Virus record (IMG/VR): IMGVR_UViG_2690316184_000001 | Span: 1-5,706 of that record | Direction: 5' to 3' (one strand) | Length of the DNA: 5,706 nucleotides | Source of the DNA: a virus | Lineage: Duplodnaviria > Heunggongvirae > Uroviricota > Caudoviricetes | Position numbers and translations under genes: made by a program | Shown: one piece after another, positions 1 through 5,706 of the stretch | Position numbering within the stretch: position 1 is the stretch's first letter | Layout: each line of letters opens with the position of its first letter | Notes under the pieces: generated by a model | The model's input: the letters and a program-made list of their open reading frames with translations, nothing else | Told to the model about the DNA's origin: nothing | The model's database searches: none

Positions 1-58
1 AGCGGGCTTGTAATGGGTTAAGTGATAACAGATGTCTGGAAATATAGGGGCAAATCCA
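1..58 (+). mobile_element. Right terminal end of an IS2-like (IS3-family) insertion sequence; the element body lies beyond the left edge of the window
   Basis: Positions 18-58 (TTAAGTGATAACAGATGTCTGGAAATATAGGGGCAAATCCA) match the IS2 right inverted repeat as I recall it. Lambda int homology on the - strand stops exactly at 59, directly abutting the repeat end. Only 58 bp are visible, so identity rests on the terminal repeat alone. Confidence 0.65.
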
Positions 59-208
59 CTGTATAGCTTCAGTGATTGCGATTCGCCTGTCTCGGCCTAA
101 TCCAAACTCTTTACCCGTCCTTGGGTCCCTGTAGCAGTAATATCCATTGTTTCTTATATAAAGGTTAGGGGGTAAATCCCGGCGCTCATGACTTCGCCTT
201 CTTCCCAT
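59..208 (-). pseudogene. int: Integrase Int, 5' fragment only (codons 1-50), truncated by the IS insertion
   Basis: The - strand translation from ATG at 208..206 reads MGRRRSHERRDLPPNLYIRNNGYYCYRDPRTGKEFGLGRDRRIAITEAIQ, the lambda Int N-terminus as I recall it. The start lies 23 bp inside the 3' end of xis, as in lambda. After codon 50 the sequence becomes the IS2-like terminal repeat. Confidence 0.85.
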
Positions 209-404
209 TTCTGATCCTCTTCAAAAGGCTACCTGTTACTGGTCGATTTAAGTCAACCTTTACCGCTGATTCGTGGAACAGATACTCTCTTCCATCCTTA
301 ACCGGAGGAGGGAATATCCTGCACTCGCGTACCCATCGACGAACTGTTTCAAGGCTTCTTGGGCGTCGCTGGCGTGCGTTCCACTCCTGAAGTGTCAAGT
401 ACAT
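186..404 (-). CDS. xis: Excisionase Xis (72 aa)
   Basis: Six-frame ORF 186..404 (-) translates to MYLTLQEWNARQRRPRSLETVRRWVRECRIFPPPVKDGREYLFHESAVKVDLNRPVTG..LLKRIRNGKKAKS, essentially lambda Xis from memory. The classic 23-bp xis/int overlap is present. Confidence 0.95.
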   Translation of the reverse strand: MYLTLQEWNARQRRPRSLETVRRWVRECRIFPPPVKDGREYLFHESAVKVDLNRPVTGSLLKRIRNGKKAKS

Positions 405-431
405 CGCAAAGTCTCCGCAATTACACGCAAG
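390..431 (-). promoter_or_regulatory. pI promoter region with CII activator site (TTGC-N6-TTGC) overlapping the xis start codon
   Basis: The - strand reads TTGCGTGTAATTGCGGAGACTTTGCGATGTACTTGACAC. Direct repeats TTGC (430..427) and TTGC (420..417) are separated by 6 nt, the CII recognition architecture. The xis ATG (404..402) falls in the -10 region, consistent with the known pI transcript that makes Int but not Xis. Confidence 0.65.
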
Positions 432-452
432 AAAAAACCGCCATCAGGCGGC
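432..452 (-). terminator. Intrinsic-terminator-like hairpin on the - strand, immediately upstream of the pI CII site
   Basis: The - strand transcript reads G-CCGCC-UGAU-GGCGG-UUUUUU: a 5-bp all-GC stem, 4-nt loop and U6 tract. The short stem limits confidence. Confidence 0.4.
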
Positions 453-699
453 TTGGTGTTCTTTCAGTTCTTCAATTCGAATATTGGTTACGTCTGCATG
501 TGCTATCTGCGCCCACAGCATCCAGTGGTCATAGCAGTCGCTGATGTTCTCGGCTTCGATAACTCTGTTGAATGGTTCTCCATTCCATTCACCTGTAACT
601 CGGAAGTGCATTTATCATCGCCATAAAACAAAACTCGCCGTAGCGAGTTCAGATAAAAGAAATCCCCGCGAGTGCGAGGATAGTTACTTGTTCATATTA

Positions 700-981
700 T
701 TAATCGTCAATGTATTTTGAGCATTGTGGGCAATCATCGATCCCACAATACGATTCATATGCATCCTTTATTGCGTCGCGGGCTTCAGTAAGAGTATTGA
801 ATAAGTTGCAGCTATTATCTTTTTGATATAGGTAAGTTCCTAATTTATAAGCAGAAGAAGCATCATTTCCGCTGTCTAAAATTACATCGTTATGGATTCT
901 GCACCTTGCAAGAACTCCTGATCCCATAAGGGTCTGCATAGCCCATTGCTCTTGATCTTCACACAAATCATGAATGCTCAT
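700..981 (-). CDS. ea8.5: Ea8.5-like small Cys-rich protein (93 aa from ATG at 981)
   Basis: ORF 700..999 (-); the preferred start is ATG 981..979, preceded by GAGAGGTGTTGAA (SD-like GAGG). The 93-aa length and the 295-bp spacing to xis both match lambda ea8.5 as I recall the reference coordinates. The C-terminus is Cys-rich (CGIDDCPQC), consistent with a small zinc-binding protein. Confidence 0.7.
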   Translation of the reverse strand: MSIHDLCEDQEQWAMQTLMGSGVLARCRIHNDVILDSGNDASSAYKLGTYLYQKDNSCNLFNTLTEARDAIKDAYESYCGIDDCPQCSKYIDD

Positions 982-1080
982 TTCAACACCTCTCTTCACG
1001 TTTCACACACGTTAAGATTAACAGTGTTTTTACATGCTTTGGGAGATTTATTTTATAAAAACTCTTTTAATACAAATAGA

Positions 1081-1100
1081 TATAATAGTTCACTATTATA
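1081..1100. repeat. Perfect inverted repeat TATAATAG-N4-CTATTATA overlapping the stop codon of the DUF550/DUF551 gene, inside an AT-rich intergenic spacer (982..1095)
   Basis: Arms 1081-1088 and 1093-1100 are exact reverse complements. The stem would be all A/T, so it is a weak RNA hairpin; a protein-binding palindrome or a recombination-junction relic is equally possible. Confidence 0.5.
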
Positions 1101-1893
1101 GCTCCTTTAATCGAGGCGGTTCTGGTAGAGGCATCCAGTGGGTTACACCGCCAATTGGCTCATCGTCGTCGTACTCCAATGCGGCTATATAGAACCCGTC
1201 ACGACGAGAATAAGAAATCCCGGACATTACAATGCCATCCGAAACAACAATAATGTCACCCGTTTCTTTCGGCATTCGCTCACTACAGCTTATCCAACCA
1301 TCCGGAGTCACCGGAAGCGAGAACGGCAGCACATCTCTGTGAACAAGTTTTTGCTGTGACAGGTTATCCAGAACTTTCTGTACTGCTGCATCACCGAATA
1401 CACCAAGCGCATCTGCCATAACTCCTACAACCTGATAAGCCTCAGCGCATACCGTGGATAAACCATCCGGAATTACCGGAGAGTTGCCGGGTTCTTTAAT
1501 GTGCAAGCGAGGCTCACCATCTTTTGGTTCAGGCCACTGGCGCTCCATGTTGATCTTCAATTTATCTTCCATAGCAGCGGTAATTTCAGCATCGCTGATG
1601 CCAGCACGGCGCTGTGCATCCCACAACAGGAAATGCATATCAGCCCACTCGCTGAGATCGTCTGGTTCGGCTGCGGCTTCCAGAGCCTCTTTTGAGAGGT
1701 GTTTCAGTGGACCAATGGGGCCAACGCAGCCAAATGTGGAGTCAGACCATTTGGCATGCTCGTGGCGAATCAGTTCGCGTTCCAGTGATGCCAGTGCAAT
1801 TCGTGCCAGTTCCATTTGTTCGCCACGAGTAAGCCCGTTTTCAAGCGGATTTTTAATGAACAATTCAATACGTTCTTTGGTAATAGTGGTCAT
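1096..1893 (-). CDS. Two-domain phage protein: N-terminal MazG-like all-alpha NTP pyrophosphohydrolase (DUF550 type, dATP/dGTP pyrophosphohydrolase family) plus C-terminal DUF551-type domain (265 aa)
   Basis: ORF 1096..1893 (-), ATG 1893..1891 preceded by AAGGACTAACAA (SD AAGGA). The N-terminal half carries the MazG-type acidic motif EALEAAAE...EWADMHFLLWD. The C-terminus ends ...GGVTHWMPLPEPP, the signature I associate with DUF551. Assignment is from motif recall, not a search. Confidence 0.6.
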   Translation of the reverse strand: MTTITKERIELFIKNPLENGLTRGEQMELARIALASLERELIRHEHAKWSDSTFGCVGPIGPLKHLSKEALEAAAEPDDLSEWADMHFLLWDAQRRAGISDAEITAAMEDKLKINMERQWPEPKDGEPRLHIKEPGNSPVIPDGLSTVCAEAYQVVGVMADALGVFGDAAVQKVLDNLSQQKLVHRDVLPFSLPVTPDGWISCSERMPKETGDIIVVSDGIVMSGISYSRRDGFYIAALEYDDDEPIGGVTHWMPLPEPPRLKEL

Positions 1894-1903
1894 TTGTTAG
1901 TCC

Positions 1904-2659
1904 TTAAACTGCTAGTTGCAATTGCATTTCAAAGCGGTCGCGTTGTTCACAATACGCAAGAGAACCAGGGCTATTGTGTGCCTCAATCCGTTCTACCATT
2001 AATGCTGCGCGTGTCTCTTTACTTGCAGGTGCATAAGCCCCAGACCAGGCTTTATCAATACCGATGTTTCGAGCGACGTTCGTACTATCTGCGCTGGCTA
2101 AGGGTAATTTTGTGAATATCAGCGGATTTAACATGCGCAATCCATGTAGTTTCGTAACCGGCTGACCATGCCCATCAACAATGTGACGAATCAGGTCTTT
2201 CATTCTGGCTACCGCAAGAGTTGGGCGCTTTACGTCATAGTCGCCACAACTACCGATAGCCACTCGCGGAAACTCATTGCACAAATGAATAAATCGCGCG
2301 TCACTTTCATTCATGTGCCACACTGGAACGCCAGCTAGTTTTCCGTGAGGCCACTCATTCAGAAGCGCATCATTTTCCTCCTCTCCGCCATCAATAATAT
2401 CCGGGATAATGGCAAAATCGAATCCTGGGTGATTCTTCCAGCGAGCAACAAACTCGTAGTAATCGCTCCAGTCGATTTTGTTTTTGCCAGCTGCTTTCCA
2501 GGCGGTGAATGCACCGTTGTCCAGCGCGAACGACTGACAGTATTCAGCCGCGAGATTGATCTGGCCTGAATGCGCAAAACTGATAAACGCATGTCGCCCT
2601 TTCCATGCTCTCATTGCGCACGTATCAGGAGTAATAGGCCCACCGTGGTAGTGAATCAT
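1904..2659 (-). CDS. tRNA-guanine-transglycosylase-fold protein lacking the Zn subdomain; candidate DpdA-like DNA 7-deazaguanine transglycosylase (251 aa)
   Basis: ORF 1904..2701 (-); the preferred start is ATG 2659..2657, preceded by AAAGGAGAGTGAG (SD AGGAGA), one nt after the upstream gene's stop. Three motifs resemble the TGT catalytic core: ALDNGAF (cf. TGT LTDSGGFQ), GFDFAIIPDII (cf. GSDIVMIFDEC) and ADSTNVARNIG (cf. FDCVMPTRNARNG, nucleophile Asp). There is no C-terminal CxCxxC...H zinc motif. Function is inferred from these motifs only. Confidence 0.5.
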   Translation of the reverse strand: MIHYHGGPITPDTCAMRAWKGRHAFISFAHSGQINLAAEYCQSFALDNGAFTAWKAAGKNKIDWSDYYEFVARWKNHPGFDFAIIPDIIDGGEEENDALLNEWPHGKLAGVPVWHMNESDARFIHLCNEFPRVAIGSCGDYDVKRPTLAVARMKDLIRHIVDGHGQPVTKLHGLRMLNPLIFTKLPLASADSTNVARNIGIDKAWSGAYAPASKETRAALMVERIEAHNSPGSLAYCEQRDRFEMQLQLAV

Positions 2660-2660
2660 C

Positions 2661-3068
2661 TCACTCTCCTTTGATGCGAATGCCAGTAGCGCGGATTGCA
2701 TCGATGACTTCAGAAACTTTGTATGCCATTACCGTTTGGTAATCATCGTGAAAATCTGTTCGATGAAGCATGCTGCTACGTTCCGGGAGCAGTATTTCCC
2801 GCGCTTCCAGTTCTGCAATGCGCTTTTTTGCTGCTTCCAGTTCATCCAGTAATTCCAGCACGGTAGCCGGATTAGCCTTGGCAACAAAATCCCGGACTGG
2901 CTTACAATCAATCTCCGCAATGGGTTGATTCGATGTGTAGCCATGCTGTCTTGTATAACTACCGTGACGAATAACGAAAAAATCACCATTTATTTTTTTA
3001 GCCTGCCACTTATCTTCACCGGCTTTCTCTGCCGCTTCACGCAGTGCCTGAGAGTTAATTTCGCTCAC
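2661..3068 (-). CDS. Ea22-like family protein (135 aa), shorter than the 182-aa lambda Ea22
   Basis: ORF 2661..3068 (-). The ATG (3068..3066) overlaps the orf73 stop (ATGA coupling). The N-terminus MSEINSQALREAAEKA and a coiled-coil-like stretch LELLDELEAAKKRIAELEAR resemble prophage proteins annotated ead/Ea22-like. The gene occupies the position of ea22 in the lambda gene order. Confidence 0.55.
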   Translation of the reverse strand: MSEINSQALREAAEKAGEDKWQAKKINGDFFVIRHGSYTRQHGYTSNQPIAEIDCKPVRDFVAKANPATVLELLDELEAAKKRIAELEAREILLPERSSMLHRTDFHDDYQTVMAYKVSEVIDAIRATGIRIKGE

Positions 3069-3286
3069 TTCGAACCTCTCTGTTTACTGATAAGCTCCAG
3101 ATCCTCCTGGCAACTTGCACAAGTCCGACAACCCTGAACGACCAGGCGTCTTCGTTCATCTATCGGATCGCCACACTCACAACAATGAGTGGCAGATACA
3201 GTCTGGTAGTTCAGACGACGCATTTTTATTGCTGTGTTGCGCTGTAATTCTTCAATTTCTGATGCTGAATCAATGATGTCTGCCAT
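3065..3286 (-). CDS. orf73: TraR/DksA-family C4 zinc-finger protein (73 aa), lambda Orf73-like
   Basis: ORF 3065..3286 (-), MADIIDSASEIEELQRNTAIKMRRLNYQTVSATHCCECGDPIDERRRLVVQGCRTCASCQEDLELISKQRGSK. It has two Cys pairs (C-C-E-C ... C-R-T-C) about 17 residues apart, and the 73-aa size and position match lambda orf73, a known TraR homolog. Confidence 0.75.
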   Translation of the reverse strand: MADIIDSASEIEELQRNTAIKMRRLNYQTVSATHCCECGDPIDERRRLVVQGCRTCASCQEDLELISKQRGSK

Positions 3287-3341
3287 CTTCCATTAATCCC
3301 TGAATTGTTGGTTAATACGCTTGAGGGTGAATGCGAATAAT

Positions 3342-3363
3342 AAAAAAGGAGCCTGTAGCTCCC
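3342..3363 (-). terminator. Intrinsic-terminator-like hairpin between the orf61-region ORF and orf73
   Basis: The - strand transcript reads G-GGAGC-UACAG-GCUCC-UUUUUU-AUUAUU: a 5-6 bp GC-rich stem, 5-nt loop and U6 tract. Confidence 0.5.
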
Positions 3364-3384
3364 TGATGATTTTGCTTTTCATGT

Positions 3385-3666
3385 TCATCGTTCCTTAAAG
3401 ACGCCGTTTAACATGCCGATTGCCAGGCTTAAATGAGTCGGTGTGAATCCCATCAGCGTTACCGTTTCGCGGTGCTTCTTCAGTACGCTACGGCAAATGT
3501 CATCGACGTTTTTATCCGGAAACTGCTGTCTGGCTTTTTTGATTTCAGAATTAGCCTGACGGGCAATGCTGCGAAGGGCGTTTTCCTGCTGAGGTGTCAT
3601 TGAACAAGTCCCATGTCGGCAAGCATAAGCACACAGAATATGAAGCCCGCTGCCAGAAAAATGCAT
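3385..3666 (-). CDS. Small pL-operon protein in the lambda orf61 position; start codon uncertain (ATG 3666 gives 93 aa, ATG 3600 gives 71 aa starting MTPQQENALR...)
   Basis: ORF 3385..3666 (-). The internal ATG at 3600..3598 overlaps the stop of a 27-codon hydrophobic ORF (ATGA), suggesting the shorter form may be the translated one. The frame that lambda annotates as orf61 (by my coordinate recall) hits TGA at 3669..3667 here, so the gene structure may differ from the reference. Confidence 0.55.
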   Translation of the reverse strand: MHFSGSGLHILCAYACRHGTCSMTPQQENALRSIARQANSEIKKARQQFPDKNVDDICRSVLKKHRETVTLMGFTPTHLSLAIGMLNGVFKER

Positions 3667-3676
3667 TCAGTGGTTG

Positions 3677-3868
3677 TCATACCTGGTCTCTCTCATCTGC
3701 TTCTGCTTTCGCCACCATCATTTCCAGCTTTTGTGAAAGGGATGCGGCTAACGTGTGAAATTCTTCGTCTGTTTCTACTGGTATTGGCACAAACCTGACT
3801 CCAATTTGAGCGAGGCTATGTGCCATCTCGATACTCGTTCTTAACTCAACGGGAGATGCTTTGTGCAT
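3677..3868 (-). CDS. orf63: Lambda orf63-like small protein (63 aa)
   Basis: ATG 3868..3866, translation [63 protein letters not shown]. It is 192 bp, the same length as lambda orf63, with a 28-bp overlap with orf60a as in lambda. The frame is open further upstream to ATG 3883, so the start is not certain. Confidence 0.7.
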   Translation of the reverse strand: MHKASPVELRTSIEMAHSLAQIGVRFVPIPVETDEEFHTLAASLSQKLEMMVAKAEADERDQV

Positions 3869-4026
3869 ACAGCCCCCCCCCATTTATTATTTATCTCCTC
3901 AGCCAGCCGCTGTGCTTTCAGGGGATTTCGGATTACAGAAAGGCCGGGAAATACCCAGCCTCGCTTTGTAACGGAGTAGACGAAAGTGATTGCGCCTACC
4001 CGGATATTATCGTGAGGATGCGTCAT
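3841..4026 (-). CDS. orf60a: Lambda orf60a-like small protein (61 aa here; 60 aa in reference lambda by my recollection)
   Basis: ORF 3841..4032 (-); the preferred ATG is 4026..4024, which overlaps the exo stop (ATGA) as in lambda. Translation is [61 protein letters not shown]. Confidence 0.7.
3873..3881. repeat. Homopolymer tract C9 (G9 on the coding strand) inside orf60a, just upstream of the orf63 start
   Basis: Nine consecutive C at 3873-3881, read directly. The tract encodes the W-G-G of orf60a and doubles as a G-rich SD for orf63. Confidence 0.9.
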
Positions 4027-4703
4027 CGCCATTGCTCCCCAAATACAAAACCAATTTCAGCCAGTGCCTCGTCCATTTTTTCGATGAACTCCGGCACCAT
4101 CTCGTCAAAACTCGCCATGTACTTTTCATTCCGCTCAATCACGACATAATGCAGGCCTTCACGCTTCATGCGCGGGTCATAGTTGGCAAAGTACCAGGCA
4201 TCTTTTCGCGTCACCCACATGCTGTACTGCACCTGGGCCATGTAAGCCGATTTTATTGCCTCGAAACCACCGAGCCGGAATTTCATGAAATCCCGGGAGG
4301 TAAACGGGCATTTCAGTTCAAGGCCGTTGCCGTCACTGCATAAACCATCGGGAGAGCAGGCGGTGCGCATATTTTCGTCGCGATAGATGATCGGGGATTC
4401 AGTAATATTCACGCCGGAAGTGAATTCAAACAGGGTTCTGGCGTCGTTCTCGTACTGTTTTCCCCAGGCCAGCGCCTTAGCATTAACTTCCGGAGCCACA
4501 CCGGTGCAAACCTCAGCCAGCAGGGTGTGGAAGTAGGACATTTTCATGTCAGGCCACTTCTTTCCTGAGCGGGGCTTTGCTATCACGTTGTGAACTTCTG
4601 AAGCGGTGATGACGCCGAGCCGTAATTTGTGCCATGCATCATCCCCCTGTTCGACAGCTCTCACGTCGATCCCGGTACGCTGCAGGATAATGTCCGGTGT
4701 CAT
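4023..4703 (-). CDS. exo: Lambda exonuclease (Red alpha, Exo), 226 aa, apparently intact
   Basis: ORF 4023..4703 (-), [65 protein letters not shown]...GFVFGEQWR. This is full-length lambda Exo from memory. The ATG overlaps the bet stop (GCATGA). Confidence 0.97.
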
Positions 4704-4899
4704 GCTGCCACCTTCTGCTCAGTGGCTTTCTGTTTAAGGAATCCAAGAGCTTTCACTGCTTCGGCCTGTGTCAGTTCTGACGATGCGCGAATGTCGCGGC
4801 GAAATATCTGGGAACAGAGCGGCAATAAGTCGTCATCCCATGTTTTATCCAGGGCGATCAGCAGAGTGTTAATCTCCTGCATGGTTTCATCGTTAAGGG
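4700..4899 (-). pseudogene. bet: bet (Red beta) 3' remnant: only the last ~66 codons remain, and no in-frame ATG precedes the internal Met at 4882
   Basis: The - strand frame reads ...[67 protein letters not shown], the Beta C-terminus. Upstream of about 4899 the sequence switches to the gam 5' end, and an in-frame stop lies at 4927..4925. Confidence 0.85.
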
Positions 4900-5045
4900 G
4901 GGTAGTGAATGCTTTTGCTTGATCTCAGTTTCAGTATTAATATCCATTTTTTATAAGCGTCGACGGCCTCACGAAACATCTTTTCATCGCCAATAAAAGT
5001 GGCGATAGTGAATTTAGTCTGGATAGCCATAAGTGTTTGATCCAT
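4893..5045 (-). CDS. kil: Kil (host cell-division inhibitor), 50 aa here with the C-terminus altered by the deletion junction (47 aa in lambda by recollection)
   Basis: ATG 5045..5043 preceded by CAGGAGTCCCAAAAA (SD AGGAG). Translation is MDQTLMAIQTKFTIATFIGDEKMFREAVDAYKKWILILKLRSSKSIHYPP*. There is a 32-bp overlap with the cIII 3' end, as in lambda. The 92-aa six-frame ORF 4893..5171 is this frame extended upstream through cIII in another frame. Confidence 0.8.
   Translation of the reverse strand: MDQTLMAIQTKFTIATFIGDEKMFREAVDAYKKWILILKLRSSKSIHYPP
4903..4947 (-). pseudogene. gam: gam 5' remnant: first 15 codons (MDINTETEIKQKHSL), then out-of-frame fusion to bet 3' sequence (29-codon ORF in total)
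   Basis: ATG 4947..4945; the - strand reads ATG GAT ATT AAT ACT GAA ACT GAG ATC AAG CAA AAG CAT TCA CTA, then CCCCCC TTAACGATGAAACC, which is bet-derived. The gam frame terminates at TGA after 29 codons. Confidence 0.85.
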
Positions 5046-5178
5046 TTTTTGGGACTCCTGGCTGATTAAGTATGTCGATAAGGCGTTTCCATCCGTCACG
5101 TAATTTACGGGTGATTCGTTCAAGTAAAGATTCGGAAGGGCAGCCAGCAACAGGCCACCCTGCAATGGCATATTGCAT
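5014..5178 (-). CDS. cIII: CIII (FtsH inhibitor that stabilises CII), 54 aa
   Basis: ATG 5178..5176 preceded by AAGGAGCACACC (SD AAGGAG, 6-nt spacing). Translation is MQYAIAGWPVAGCPSESLLERITRKLRDGWKRLIDILNQPGVPKNGSNTYGYPD*, lambda CIII from memory. It is absent from the six-frame track because it is shorter than 60 aa. Confidence 0.9.
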   Translation of the reverse strand: MQYAIAGWPVAGCPSESLLERITRKLRDGWKRLIDILNQPGVPKNGSNTYGYPD

Positions 5179-5204
5179 GGTGTGCTCCTTATTTATACAT
5201 AACG

Positions 5205-5227
5205 AAAAACGCCTCGAGTGAAGCGTT
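5205..5227 (-). terminator. Intrinsic-terminator-like hairpin between ea10 and cIII (at the position I would expect lambda tL3; name tentative)
   Basis: The - strand transcript reads AACGCUUC-ACUC-GAGGCGUU-UUUCG: about an 8-bp stem with one G.U pair and a 4-nt loop, with the run of U beginning inside the 3' arm. Confidence 0.4.
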
Positions 5228-5250
5228 ATTGGTATGCGGTAACGCCGCGC

Positions 5251-5619
5251 TCAGGCGGCTTTGATAGTCATATCATCTGGATCAAATATTCCTGATGTAT
5301 CGATATCGGTAATTCTTATTCCTTCGCTACCATCCATTGGAGGCCATCCTTCCTGACCATTTCCATCATTCCAGTCGAACTCACACACAACACCATATGC
5401 ATTTAAGTCGCTTGAAATTGCTATAAGCAGAGCATGTTGCGCCAGCATGATTAATACAGCATTTAATACAGAGCCGTGTTTATTGAGTCGGTATTCAGAG
5501 TCTGACCAGAAATTATTAATCTGGTGAAGTTTTTCCTCTGTCATTACGTCATGATCGATTTCAATTTCTATTGATGCTTTCCAGTCGTAATCAATGATGT
5601 ATTTTTTGATGTTTGACAT
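5251..5619 (-). CDS. ea10: Ea10-like protein (122 aa)
   Basis: ORF 5251..5619 (-), ATG preceded by TATGAGGATATGAATAG (SD GAGGA). The 122-aa length and the 72-bp spacing to cIII both match lambda ea10 by my coordinate recall. Confidence 0.8.
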   Translation of the reverse strand: MSNIKKYIIDYDWKASIEIEIDHDVMTEEKLHQINNFWSDSEYRLNKHGSVLNAVLIMLAQHALLIAISSDLNAYGVVCEFDWNDGNGQEGWPPMDGSEGIRITDIDTSGIFDPDDMTIKAA

Positions 5620-5639
5620 CTATTCATATCCTCATAGAT

Positions 5640-5667
5640 AAAAAATCGCCCTCACACTGGAGGGCAA
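5640..5667 (-). terminator. Strong intrinsic terminator on the - strand upstream of ea10 (lambda tL2-region terminator; name tentative)
   Basis: The - strand transcript reads UU-GCCCUC-CAGUGU-GAGGGC-GA-UUUUUU: a 6-bp GC stem, extendable to 8 bp with U.G and U-A pairs, a 6-nt loop, and U6 directly after the stem. Confidence 0.6.
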
Positions 5668-5706
5668 AGAAGATTTCCAATAATCAGAACAAGTCGGCTC
5701 CTGTTT

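Follow-up and report, generated by a model that had tools for sequence, protein, structure and literature searches.

Does a lone DpdA-like enzyme encoded in the ea22 slot of a lambdoid element mark DNA with host-made 7-deazaguanine, and does the gene that directly follows it act in the same pathway? These questions arise from a 5,706-nt viral sequence (Caudoviricetes; IMG/VR record IMGVR_UViG_2690316184_000001, positions 1 to 5,706), the whole of which we refer to as the window. A preliminary description of the window had proposed that a DpdA-like transglycosylase and a MazG-like dNTP pyrophosphohydrolase form a candidate two-gene module through which the phage decorates its own DNA as an anti-restriction measure.

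The region from 1096 to 3068 contains three genes, all on the minus strand: an Ea22/Ead-like gene (2661..3068; PF13935 at 2.9e-17), the gene for a 251-aa DpdA-like (TGT-fold) protein of the "DpdA-only" phage clade (1904..2659), and the gene for a 265-aa mosaic protein of EaA type (1096..1893; PF04447 at 1.1e-41, PF04448 at 7e-14). The distance between the starts of ea8.5 and Ea22 is 2069 bp here versus 740 bp in lambda, in line with the ~2.1 kb and ~0.74 kb first estimated. Tight packing of the genes, likewise claimed at the outset, was evident when the junctions were read directly; i.e., a single nucleotide lies between the Ea22 stop and the 251-aa ORF (GGAGAG TGA G ATG ATT CAC), with a GGAG Shine-Dalgarno sequence ahead of the ATG at 2659, while a 10-nt intergenic spacer (1894..1903, minus strand) lies between the dpdA stop and the EaA-type gene start (GTT TAA GGACTAACAA ATG ACC). 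A longer, 265-aa reading of the DpdA-like ORF from 2701 was rejected; 251 aa is the correct length because 20 of 20 aligned homologues begin MIHYHGG, and the GGAG stands before 2659. Plus-strand ORFs in the region (e.g., 1454-1900 and 1816-2115) were taken as shadows of the conserved minus-strand genes. This dpdA allele usually has the Ea22-like gene directly upstream, an arrangement seen also in related contigs (L007-L016), BTP1, and Salmonella contigs; L008/L009 and BTP1 share the GGACTAACAA junction downstream.

The 251-aa protein is a strongly conserved phage DpdA-family member of the "DpdA-only" type, with a TGT fold and without a zinc subdomain. It is matched by PHROG 887 ("queuine tRNA-ribosyltransferase") at 2.6e-101, and tblastn places it at 92.4% identity to its BTP1 and SPN3UB counterparts, 67% to that of SfI, 38.5% to MED16 DpdA, and 35% to those of 7-11 and HK106. 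The more distant CAjan DpdA is reached by BLASTP at an E of 7e-9 and by hhalign at 96.2% probability (E 2.7e-9, residues 45-195). In the assembly collection, 4753 indexed blocks contain an identical protein, and the family comprises about 1570 clusters at 50% identity; the gene is thus real and not a chance ORF. The three motifs on which the initial assignment had been built, i.e., DNGAF (47-51), GFDFAIIPDII (79-89), and ADSTNVARN (190-198), are all present, with key residues that are invariant across the family.

Searches aimed at TGT itself returned little. Pfam (E<=0.1) and NCBIfam gave no match to the 251-aa protein, PF01702 (TGT) included, and neither HMM nor phmmer queries built on the protein and its family alignments retrieved anything relevant from PDB sequences. 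With low-diversity profiles, hhalign of the family against E. coli Tgt yielded a probability below 1%, and against an alignment of 80 gamma-proteobacterial TGT sequences 0.2%; in the latter, the sole sensible pairing was that of DNGAF with TDSGGFQ, strand 7 being elsewhere mis-registered against strand 8. However, the DpdAs of MED16, HK106, and 7-11 likewise lack a Pfam match, and the CAjan family profile also finds no TGT among PDB sequences. Pfam and profile tests for TGT are therefore insensitive for short phage DpdAs, and the null result among PDB sequences is a sensitivity limit as opposed to counter-evidence. HHpred has linked MED16 DpdA to the TGT structure 2ASH at 99.2% (Šimoliūnienė et al. 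2021).

Structure prediction agrees with this family assignment. An alignment-based AF2 model of the 251-aa protein (pLDDT 88.5, pTM 0.87) contains eight beta-alpha units, forming a (beta/alpha)8 barrel whose closest resemblance is to TGT-family structures. Of the AlphaFold and Foldseek check originally suggested, the barrel and the comparison with BFVD came out as expected, the named structural matches in BFVD being phage "queuine tRNA-ribosyltransferases"; Foldseek against the PDB, on the other hand, gave generic TIM barrels only. The original identification of the protein as a DpdA-family member with a TGT fold that lacks the zinc subdomain is upheld by PHROG 887, the CAjan alignment, and the AF2 barrel.

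Residues D47, H115, E118, G136, H172, D191, and S192 do not vary among 117 sequences drawn from three clades, CAjan family included, and the AF2 model places D47, D87, H115, H172, and D191 at the C-terminal ends of strands 3, 4, 5, 7, and 8, respectively. D47 (DNGAF; codon at 2519..2521, minus strand) is the predicted general acid/base and, judging by its location where strand 3 ends, the probable equivalent of Asp95 in bDpdA; F51, four residues on, corresponds to bDpdA Phe99. D191 (ADSTN; 2087..2089, minus strand) is the predicted nucleophile, the counterpart of bDpdA Asp256 and Cap10 D248, with H172 (2144-2146, minus strand) as its likely partner in the manner of Cap10 H226. H115 (PVWHMNE; 2315..2317, minus strand) is the predicted DpdA-signature His, matched with bDpdA His181, and aligns with the FHxGE motif of CAjan. 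D87 (IIPDII; 2399..2401, minus strand) may be the base-recognition Asp that corresponds to bDpdA Asp130; it is invariant in its own clade and in the MED16 clade, the invariant Asp of the CAjan clade standing three columns later. The expectation that the putative catalytic Asp residues would be conserved is thus borne out for D47 and D191 in all three clades, and for D87 in two of them. The equivalence of D47/H115/D191/D87 to bDpdA D95/H181/D256/D130 is itself a prediction. No structural Zn site (CxCxxC...H) follows the nucleophile; past D191 there is only one, non-conserved Cys (C237) before the chain stops at residue 251.

This absence had been presented as the general architecture of DpdA enzymes, which it is not: bacterial DpdA keeps its Zn site, and only the short phage DpdAs lack one. 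The bacterial enzyme (bDpdA of the Salmonella Montevideo Dpd system, PDB 7UI4) is 413 aa long, has 14% identity to the 251-aa protein, bears a 128-residue insertion with the structural Zn site, and needs the DpdB ATPase, neither of which is present here; DpdB (ParB-like ATPase) or dpdC-K neighbours and the Ins8 insertion were not found, and PADLOC gave no match. The DpdA1 proteins of CAjan and 9g are nearer, with a homologous core and the D...F, H-x-x-E, K-x-H-G, and D-S-S/T motifs in common with the 251-aa protein. Genetic work on CAjan has proven that guanine is exchanged after replication; however, identity to the 251-aa protein is only 18-23%, and CAjan DpdA (306 aa) has ~50 more N-terminal and ~60 more C-terminal residues. 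Moreover, CAjan dpdA lies beside folE, queD, queE, and queC and modifies about 30% of G, whereas such genes are absent here.

The closest parallel is with the third, "DpdA-only" group of 76 phages, among which are BTP1, SPN3UB, SfI, HK106, SEN1, Athena1, 7-11, and PEAT2 (Hutinet et al. 2019); BTP1, SPN3UB, SfI, HK106, and 7-11 are listed as DpdA-only in the Supplementary Data of that study, MED16 is not. As here, the DpdA-only phage proteins are of similar length and have no Zn site, their phages lack preQ0 synthesis genes, and their hosts possess the full queuosine pathway. FolE, QueD, QueE, and QueC are absent from the window, from the whole prophage to which it belongs, and from related contexts, so the gene belongs in this group. 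The earlier statement that no 7-deazaguanine synthesis gene occurs in the window is accordingly true and extends to the whole prophage, and the view of a lone dpdA dependent on host preQ0 is borne out. The suggestion of novelty did not survive: the 92%-identical BTP1 orthologue and other relatives had already been catalogued as DpdA in 2019 (Hutinet et al. 2019). What sets the E. coli allele apart from the DpdA-only phage alleles is that it is itself undescribed and is housed in a defective prophage.

By sequence, model, and analogy, the 251-aa ORF probably encodes a minimal TGT-fold phage DpdA enzyme of the "DpdA-only" cluster of temperate gamma-proteobacterial phages, with a mechanism that can be drawn from homology. 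The analysis directly shows the fold and family of the protein, its conserved residues, the gene structure, its genomic contexts, and the defective state of the element; from these we infer substrate, product, expression timing, and benefit as follows. In lytic growth, dpdA (here part of the pL operon, in other phages of the nin region) would be transcribed alongside early genes. The enzyme would flip a guanine out of double-stranded DNA; Asp191 would displace the base to form a covalent sugar-enzyme intermediate, with Asp47 as acid/base and the base read by Asp87 and His115. The base then inserted would be preQ0 made by the host (E. coli FolE/QueD/QueE/QueC) or a near derivative of it. The expected outcome would be sparse 7-deazaguanine marks (dPreQ0, possibly ending as dADG) and not bulk replacement.

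Published work on related enzymes is consistent with such a route. When expressed alone in E. coli, 9g DpdA or nt-1 DpdA2 yields 790-1607 dPreQ0 per 10^6 nt, and none in a queD mutant, which argues that the host preQ0 supply is sufficient. Knock-out of CAjan dpdA leads to loss of all dPreQ0. MED16 has dpdA as its sole pathway gene, and its DNA carries 354 dADG per 10^6 nt (Šimoliūnienė et al. 2021); 7-11 DNA carries 50 dADG per 10^6 nt. The DpdA-only relatives that have been tested, MED16 and 7-11, thus contain mainly dADG, at 0.02-0.13% of G. These are also the nearest relatives of the 251-aa protein with analysed DNA (MED16 at 38%, then 7-11 at 35%); in closer members, modification is a prediction. 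Mycobacteriophage Orion, another DpdA-only case, is entirely unmodified. The product originally predicted, i.e., dPreQ0 or a derivative serving against restriction, is not supported by these data: MED16 and 7-11 carry sparse dADG and not bulk dPreQ0, and the restriction enzymes tried on MED16 were not clearly blocked (Šimoliūnienė et al. 2021). In BTP1 lysogens, bstA, pid, and gtrAC are reported to be expressed in lysogeny, and the text of that paper is silent on the dpdA-like gene; within the literature collection searched, no later paper tests DpdA-only genes in temperate phages.

Whether any of this takes place at the present locus is a separate matter. The window is identical to part of a ~23-kb defective lambdoid prophage at attλ (NZ_AP027971.1), which is without pL/N, cI, cro, O, P, and most structural genes; its terminase is truncated, and ral adjoins a truncated Q gene. 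In the window itself, the defective state is marked by a C-terminal remnant of bet (4700..4882, minus strand; annotated "phage recombination protein Bet, incomplete"), gam being absent. Related contigs of the L010/L011/L015 type retain both gam and bet. With N, cI, O, and P missing, the element is unable to modify DNA of its own phage, and the contention that "this phage decorates its DNA" is not supported. Both genes are instead passengers in the defective prophage and, since pL/N, cI, and the replication genes are missing, are here probably silent cargo. A stricter version, in which nothing happens at this locus and both genes are unexpressed leftovers, intact through recent decay or through recombination with incoming lambdoid phages, is to our minds a serious contender, if somewhat short of probable. 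Besides the gene losses and the truncation of bet and terminase, the IS2 insertion in ea8.5 of sister strains speaks for it, and a consensus scan of the coding strand from 600 to 3400 revealed no sigma-70-like promoter. However, many strains carry both ORFs intact and at 100% identity, a consensus scan leaves room for read-through or internal promoters, and genes of cryptic prophages can be functional. Silence at this site concerns the locus and not the protein family, and is thus compatible with the 251-aa protein being a DNA-modifying DpdA.

A different possibility is that the TGT-fold enzyme no longer modifies DNA and instead acts on tRNA or on protein-linked or free 7-deazaguanine, in counter-defence (against type IV CBASS with Cap9/Cap10, or QatABCD) or as a prophage defence gene; we consider this unlikely. 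In its favour, DpdA-only proteins cluster separately by sequence and may, according to the authors who grouped them, have diverged in function (Hutinet et al. 2019), DpdA-only phages carry too little modification for any obvious shielding from restriction, and the neighbours at this locus are accessory and anti-defence-type genes (ral, Ea22, DksA-like). However, the surroundings contain no QueC-like, CD-NTase, or Qat gene, and a PADLOC defence-system search matched nothing. Cap10 (type IV CBASS, PDB 9NTN) has 10% identity to the 251-aa protein and resembles it in fold only. It is encoded in one operon with QueC-like Cap9 and a CD-NTase with an N-terminal Gly-rich tail, and it binds a protein N-terminus; no Cap9 or CD-NTase partner was found here, the neighbours being lambdoid early genes only, again without a PADLOC match. 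Furthermore, Cap10 reads the base with Lys154, while the 251-aa family has the DpdA-type His115 at that position. Sequence-level links are to phage DpdAs only, 7-deazaguanine is present in MED16 and 7-11 DNA although neither phage encodes other pathway genes, and the 251-aa protein is without the Zn subdomain and the C-terminal parts used by TGT with tRNA. A broader form, in which the temperate enterobacterial DpdA-only clade does not serve bulk anti-restriction modification but has been repurposed either for a few site-specific regulatory or self-identity marks or for non-DNA deazaguanine substrates (as in Cap9/Cap10 CBASS or QatABCD), appears doubtful to the same degree.

The remaining proposal concerns the 265-aa protein. 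The call of a MazG-like DUF550 domain followed by DUF551 held for both domains: PF04447 (DUF550, now dATP/dGTP pyrophosphohydrolase) matches residues 42-137 at 141.4 bits, against a cut-off of 23, over profile positions 1-96 of 97, and PF04448 (DUF551) matches residues 199-260 with an E of 7e-14. It did not hold for the placement of DUF550 at the extreme N-terminus, where a separate 38-aa module comes first. On the minus strand, that N-terminal module (bounded by comparison with the L008 and BTP1 variants) occupies 1780-1893, the DUF550 domain 1483-1770 (then a linker), and the DUF551 domain 1114-1299. The acidic EALEAAAE...EWAD motifs are seen in the DUF550 domain, which is a predicted MazG-like dATP/dGTP pyrophosphohydrolase. 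A full-length PF04447 match and the acidic motifs are common to P22 EaA-type proteins and to the DUF5664-DUF550 protein of SH-Ab 15497; dATP/dGTP pyrophosphohydrolase activity has been described for the homologue in that Z-genome phage (Acinetobacter phage SH-Ab 15497), a distant relative. Unlike those DUF550 proteins, the one encoded here is a mosaic in which the domain is preceded by a 38-aa module and followed by DUF551, and it has no PurZ/DatZ context.

The association with dpdA is mere adjacency. A loose association of the two genes is possible because DUF550 follows dpdA both in E. coli and, in a P22-like background, in BTP1, although the DUF550 domains are only 48% identical; the coupling is also tight (10-nt spacer, one strand), and DUF550 enzymes tune purine dNTP pools in Z-genome phages. 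However, in the L008 type, to which 13 of ~29 contigs with an identical DpdA belong, DUF550 is swapped for another domain with the first 38 aa and DUF551 kept, and in a further contig (L007) the DUF550 gene is frameshifted with dpdA intact. Examination of DUF550-free contexts covered homologues of 35-93% identity (E. coli, Salmonella, Hafnia-type, Aeromonas, HK106, MED16, 7-11); the neighbour is absent beside homologues P0001, P0107, P0053, and P0113 and in HK106, MED16, and 7-11. Fragments of the DUF550 gene occur in 2794 E. coli genomes versus 204 with dpdA, and DpdA catalyses a post-replicative base exchange for which no change in dNTP pools is needed. With adjacency not conserved, a two-gene DNA-modification module in which the hydrolase could, for instance, reduce dGTP or supply the pathway is highly improbable. 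We instead propose that the 265-aa gene, a mosaic accessory gene of EaA type, is independent and has in common with dpdA a slot and a recombination junction, and not a pathway. The comparative data lend no support to a new DpdA-dNTPase module, interesting though one would have been.

Recognition of the DpdA family would improve annotation, as the dpdA-like gene is labelled "hypothetical protein" in all 201 of the 201 complete E. coli genomes bearing it (RefSeq). The role of lone DpdAs has been in question since 2019, in particular whether these mark DNA with host preQ0 and what benefit a modification of 0.02-0.1% would bring. Alleles in inducible E. coli lambdoid prophages and in Salmonella phage BTP1 are tractable systems for a lone DpdA, and a lambdoid E. 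coli prophage with the gene would open the 2019 question of DpdA-only repurposing to a direct test.

Sequence comparison places the product of the 251-aa ORF (1904-2659, minus strand) in the phage DpdA family, within the cluster of DpdA-only phages (carrying dpdA but no other 7-deazaguanine pathway gene) catalogued in 2019; this much is already known, with a 92%-identical orthologue named in that catalogue (Hutinet et al. 2019). The protein has no match in Pfam, NCBIfam, or PADLOC, and falls in PHROGs family 887 ("queuine tRNA-ribosyltransferase"; 2.6e-101). Its family is large and tightly conserved: a word-seeded search recovered >7700 proteins, clustering at 50% identity gives ~1570 clusters (201 at E<=1e-30), and mean column identity is 77% across homologues of 65-93% identity. 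Among the phage genomes searched, identity is 92.4% to proteins of BTP1, SPN3UB, and other Salmonella phages, 67% to those of SfI and Vibrio phage Athena1, 38.5% to Pantoea phage MED16 gp38, and 35% to those of HK106 and Salmonella phage 7-11. All of these named relatives except MED16 are listed by accession as DpdA-only phages in Supplementary Data 1 of Hutinet et al. 2019, where this "third group" comprises 76 phages and the gamma-proteobacterial members form a separate cluster whose function was said to need study. A weaker but significant link ties the 251-aa protein to an enzyme proven genetically, the DpdA of phage CAjan (knock-out of which abolishes dPreQ0), at 25% identity over 153 residues by BLASTP (E 7e-9) and 96.2% probability by profile-profile comparison (E 2.7e-9, residues 45-195).

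The gene occurs in 204 of 5426 complete E. coli genomes. In 5 of 218 E. coli places, a dpdA-like gene lies on ~110-kb plasmids (e.g., NZ_CP130669.1 31063-31818) that may be phage-plasmids. Separately, the 1719-bp record OR850331.1 ("Staphylococcus phage SA 1298 Kay"), which encodes a protein 92% identical to the 251-aa protein, is probably mislabelled or a contaminant.

The preliminary description had read three motifs of the protein as those of a TGT-type barrel. An AlphaFold2 model (pLDDT 88.5, pTM 0.87), built from a 117-sequence alignment of the window's own clade and the MED16 and CAjan clades, is a regular eight-stranded β/α barrel (strands 2-6, 23-27, 43-47, 80-84, 113-115, 132-136, 170-173, and 189-192). 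BFVD (viral models) gave 29 matches at E<=1e-3, the named ones being phage "queuine tRNA-ribosyltransferases," but Foldseek against the PDB returned generic barrels only, and bacterial TGT gave no significant match in profile comparisons. The DpdAs of MED16, HK106, and 7-11 likewise have no Pfam match, and the CAjan family profile likewise found nothing among PDB sequences; since known phage DpdAs thus fail the same searches, the negatives for the 251-aa protein mostly reflect low sensitivity. Residues H5, D47, A50, H115, E118, G136, H172, P186, D191, S192, and R217 are invariant in 117/117 sequences; D87 is invariant in the window's and MED16 clades only, the invariant Asp of the CAjan clade lying three alignment columns later.

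Active sites of TIM barrels lie at the C-terminal ends of strands, and D47, D87, H115, H172, and D191 each occupy such an end in the model. By position, we infer a correspondence with residues of bDpdA (the DpdA of the bacterial Dpd restriction-modification system) and of Cap10 (a type IV CBASS protein). D47 (strand 3) would act as the acid/base (bDpdA Asp95), F51, four residues further on and after strand 3, would stack on the base (Phe99), and D87 (strand 4; Asp130) and H115 (strand 5; His181) would recognize it. Similarly, G136-S137 (strand 6; bDpdA glycine loop) would bind the 7-substituent, H172 (strand 7; Cap10 H226) would be the partner of the nucleophile, and D191 (strand 8; bDpdA Asp256, Cap10 D248) would be the nucleophile itself.

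Canonical TGT was rejected as the identity of the protein. Cap10 was set aside as well, as neither a Cap9 nor a CD-NTase partner is present. The bacterial Dpd-system DpdA was rejected in turn, as the 251-aa protein lacks DpdB, the large insertion, and the Zn site; only 60 residues follow D191, with one non-conserved Cys among them. Absence of a Zn subdomain, previously taken as DpdA architecture, is a feature of short phage DpdAs only, as bacterial DpdA keeps its Zn site.

All genes of interest in the window lie on the minus strand and constitute the early-left arm of a lambdoid prophage: xis (186-404), a 55-aa ORF (444-611), ea8.5 (700-999), the 265-aa DUF550/DUF551 ORF (1096-1893), the 251-aa ORF, Ea22-like (2661-3068), a DksA/TraR zinc finger (3065-3286), DUF1382 (3677-3883), exo (4023-4703), a 60-aa Bet remnant (4700-4882), kil and cIII, and DUF2528 (5251-5619). 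The junctions described earlier are exact, at GGAGAG-TGA-G-ATG for Ea22-like/251-aa ORF (ATG at 2659) and TAA-GGACTAACAA-ATG for 251-aa/265-aa ORF (ATG at 1893). The extra DNA is likewise confirmed, with 2069 bp from ea8.5 start to Ea22 start vs 740 bp in lambda. Terminator-like sites number 7 in 600-3400 vs 2.8 expected from shuffles. Hairpins with T-runs on the coding strand include two in tandem just 3′ of ea8.5 (631-681, minus strand) and one between a 93-aa ORF and the DksA-like gene (3346-3364, minus strand).

The neighbouring 265-aa protein is an EaA-type mosaic, comprising in order a 38-aa N-terminal module, a full DUF550 (PF04447, 1.1e-41), a linker, and DUF551 (PF04448). Work on Z-genome phages identifies DUF550 as a MazG-like dATP/dGTP pyrophosphohydrolase. 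RefSeq (PGAP) splits this intact ORF, rendering its first ~40 codons as a separate pseudogene fragment (1780-1893, minus strand; counterparts at 20679-20798 in contig L001 and 28066-28185 in L022) and starting the DUF550 CDS at an internal codon (234 or 206 aa). As a mosaic unit, the 38-aa module also occurs in non-DUF550 proteins.

A two-gene module of DpdA and DUF550, as originally proposed, was not borne out, the pairing not being conserved. In 13 of ~29 contigs with identical DpdA, the downstream ORF has the same 10-nt spacing and keeps the first 38 residues and DUF551 end, with a different middle and no DUF550. In one such contig, L008, this is a 271-aa ORF (6767-7582, plus strand) with an unrelated centre of unknown function, of which only a 54-aa piece was called as a gene. 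In another contig, dpdA is intact and the adjoining DUF550 gene frameshifted. DUF550 was not seen beside the 93%-identical Salmonella allele (where one stretch has no called gene), the 67%-identical E. coli allele, Hafnia-type alleles in nin regions, or the Aeromonas allele, nor in HK106, MED16, or 7-11. BTP1 does have DUF550 after dpdA, in a protein with another N-terminus and no DUF551, at only 48% domain identity. Pieces of the DUF550 gene occur in 2794 complete E. coli genomes vs 204 with dpdA; most DUF550 genes thus lack dpdA. Moreover, DpdA chemistry is post-replicative, needing no dNTP-pool change. These arrangements are most simply read as two accessory genes occupying one slot that is prone to recombination. 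A second phage type (L104 1-270; L008/L009) has the same dpdA allele within a rightward early operon, with DnaT/P replication genes followed by Ea22-dpdA and the small terminase; its Salmonella version has a DNA cytosine methylase gene a few genes upstream.

The window's element is a remnant that can neither replicate nor package DNA, so the prediction of a phage decorating its own DNA cannot hold for it. E. coli VE-V10-F (NZ_AP027971.1) matches the 5706 bases in 28/28 test blocks at one offset, and its element occupies the lambda attachment site, flanked by ybhC and ybhB/bioA. There, ral adjoins a truncated Q on the opposite strand. That element lacks N, cI, cro, O, P, and gam and retains only a truncated bet; its large terminase has been cut and runs into a tail-tip fragment, and its lom is interrupted by IS1. 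In the window, Bet is reduced to its last 60 residues (4700-4882, minus strand), fused directly downstream of kil/cIII (4893-5178), and gam is absent. The Bet/gam deletion and this genomic context together identify a defective prophage at attλ. The same remnant is found in APEC O78 and many other strains with IS2 inside ea8.5; most strains with 100% identical DNA have this insertion (L001 18453-19681), unlike the window (~700-999) and VE-V10-F, where ea8.5 is intact. Intact relatives do exist: BTP1, an active Salmonella phage, and lambdoid prophages (L010, L011, and L015) that have gam and bet along with this Ea22-ORF251-DUF550-ea8.5-xis-int block.

By homology, the enzyme would replace guanine in duplex DNA with a 7-deazaguanine base via a covalent Asp191-deoxyribose intermediate, and the host has to supply that base. 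E. coli is a producer of preQ0, and the full pathway is generally present where DpdA-only phages have their hosts. In E. coli, 9g DpdA or nt-1 DpdA2 expressed on its own places 790-1607 dPreQ0 per 10^6 nt in plasmid DNA, and a queD mutant gives none; host supply is thus sufficient. Phage 7-11 DNA carries 50 dADG per 10^6 nt, that of MED16 (dpdA only) 354 dADG and 3 dPreQ0, and that of Mycobacteriophage Orion no modification; no restriction protection of MED16 is attributable to dADG. From the two tested DpdA-only phages, sparse modification would be expected for the 251-aa enzyme, and the base recovered may be dADG instead of dPreQ0.

The gene is always in early lytic operons, either the pL arm (exo to xis) or the nin region (replication genes to Q), and the accessory genes that the BTP1 lysogen transcriptome paper lists in its text as expressed in lysogeny are bstA, pid, gtrA, and gtrC, with no mention of dpdA; both fit a lytic-cycle function on replicating phage DNA. 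For the DpdA-only clade, a role other than bulk anti-restriction modification seems unlikely.
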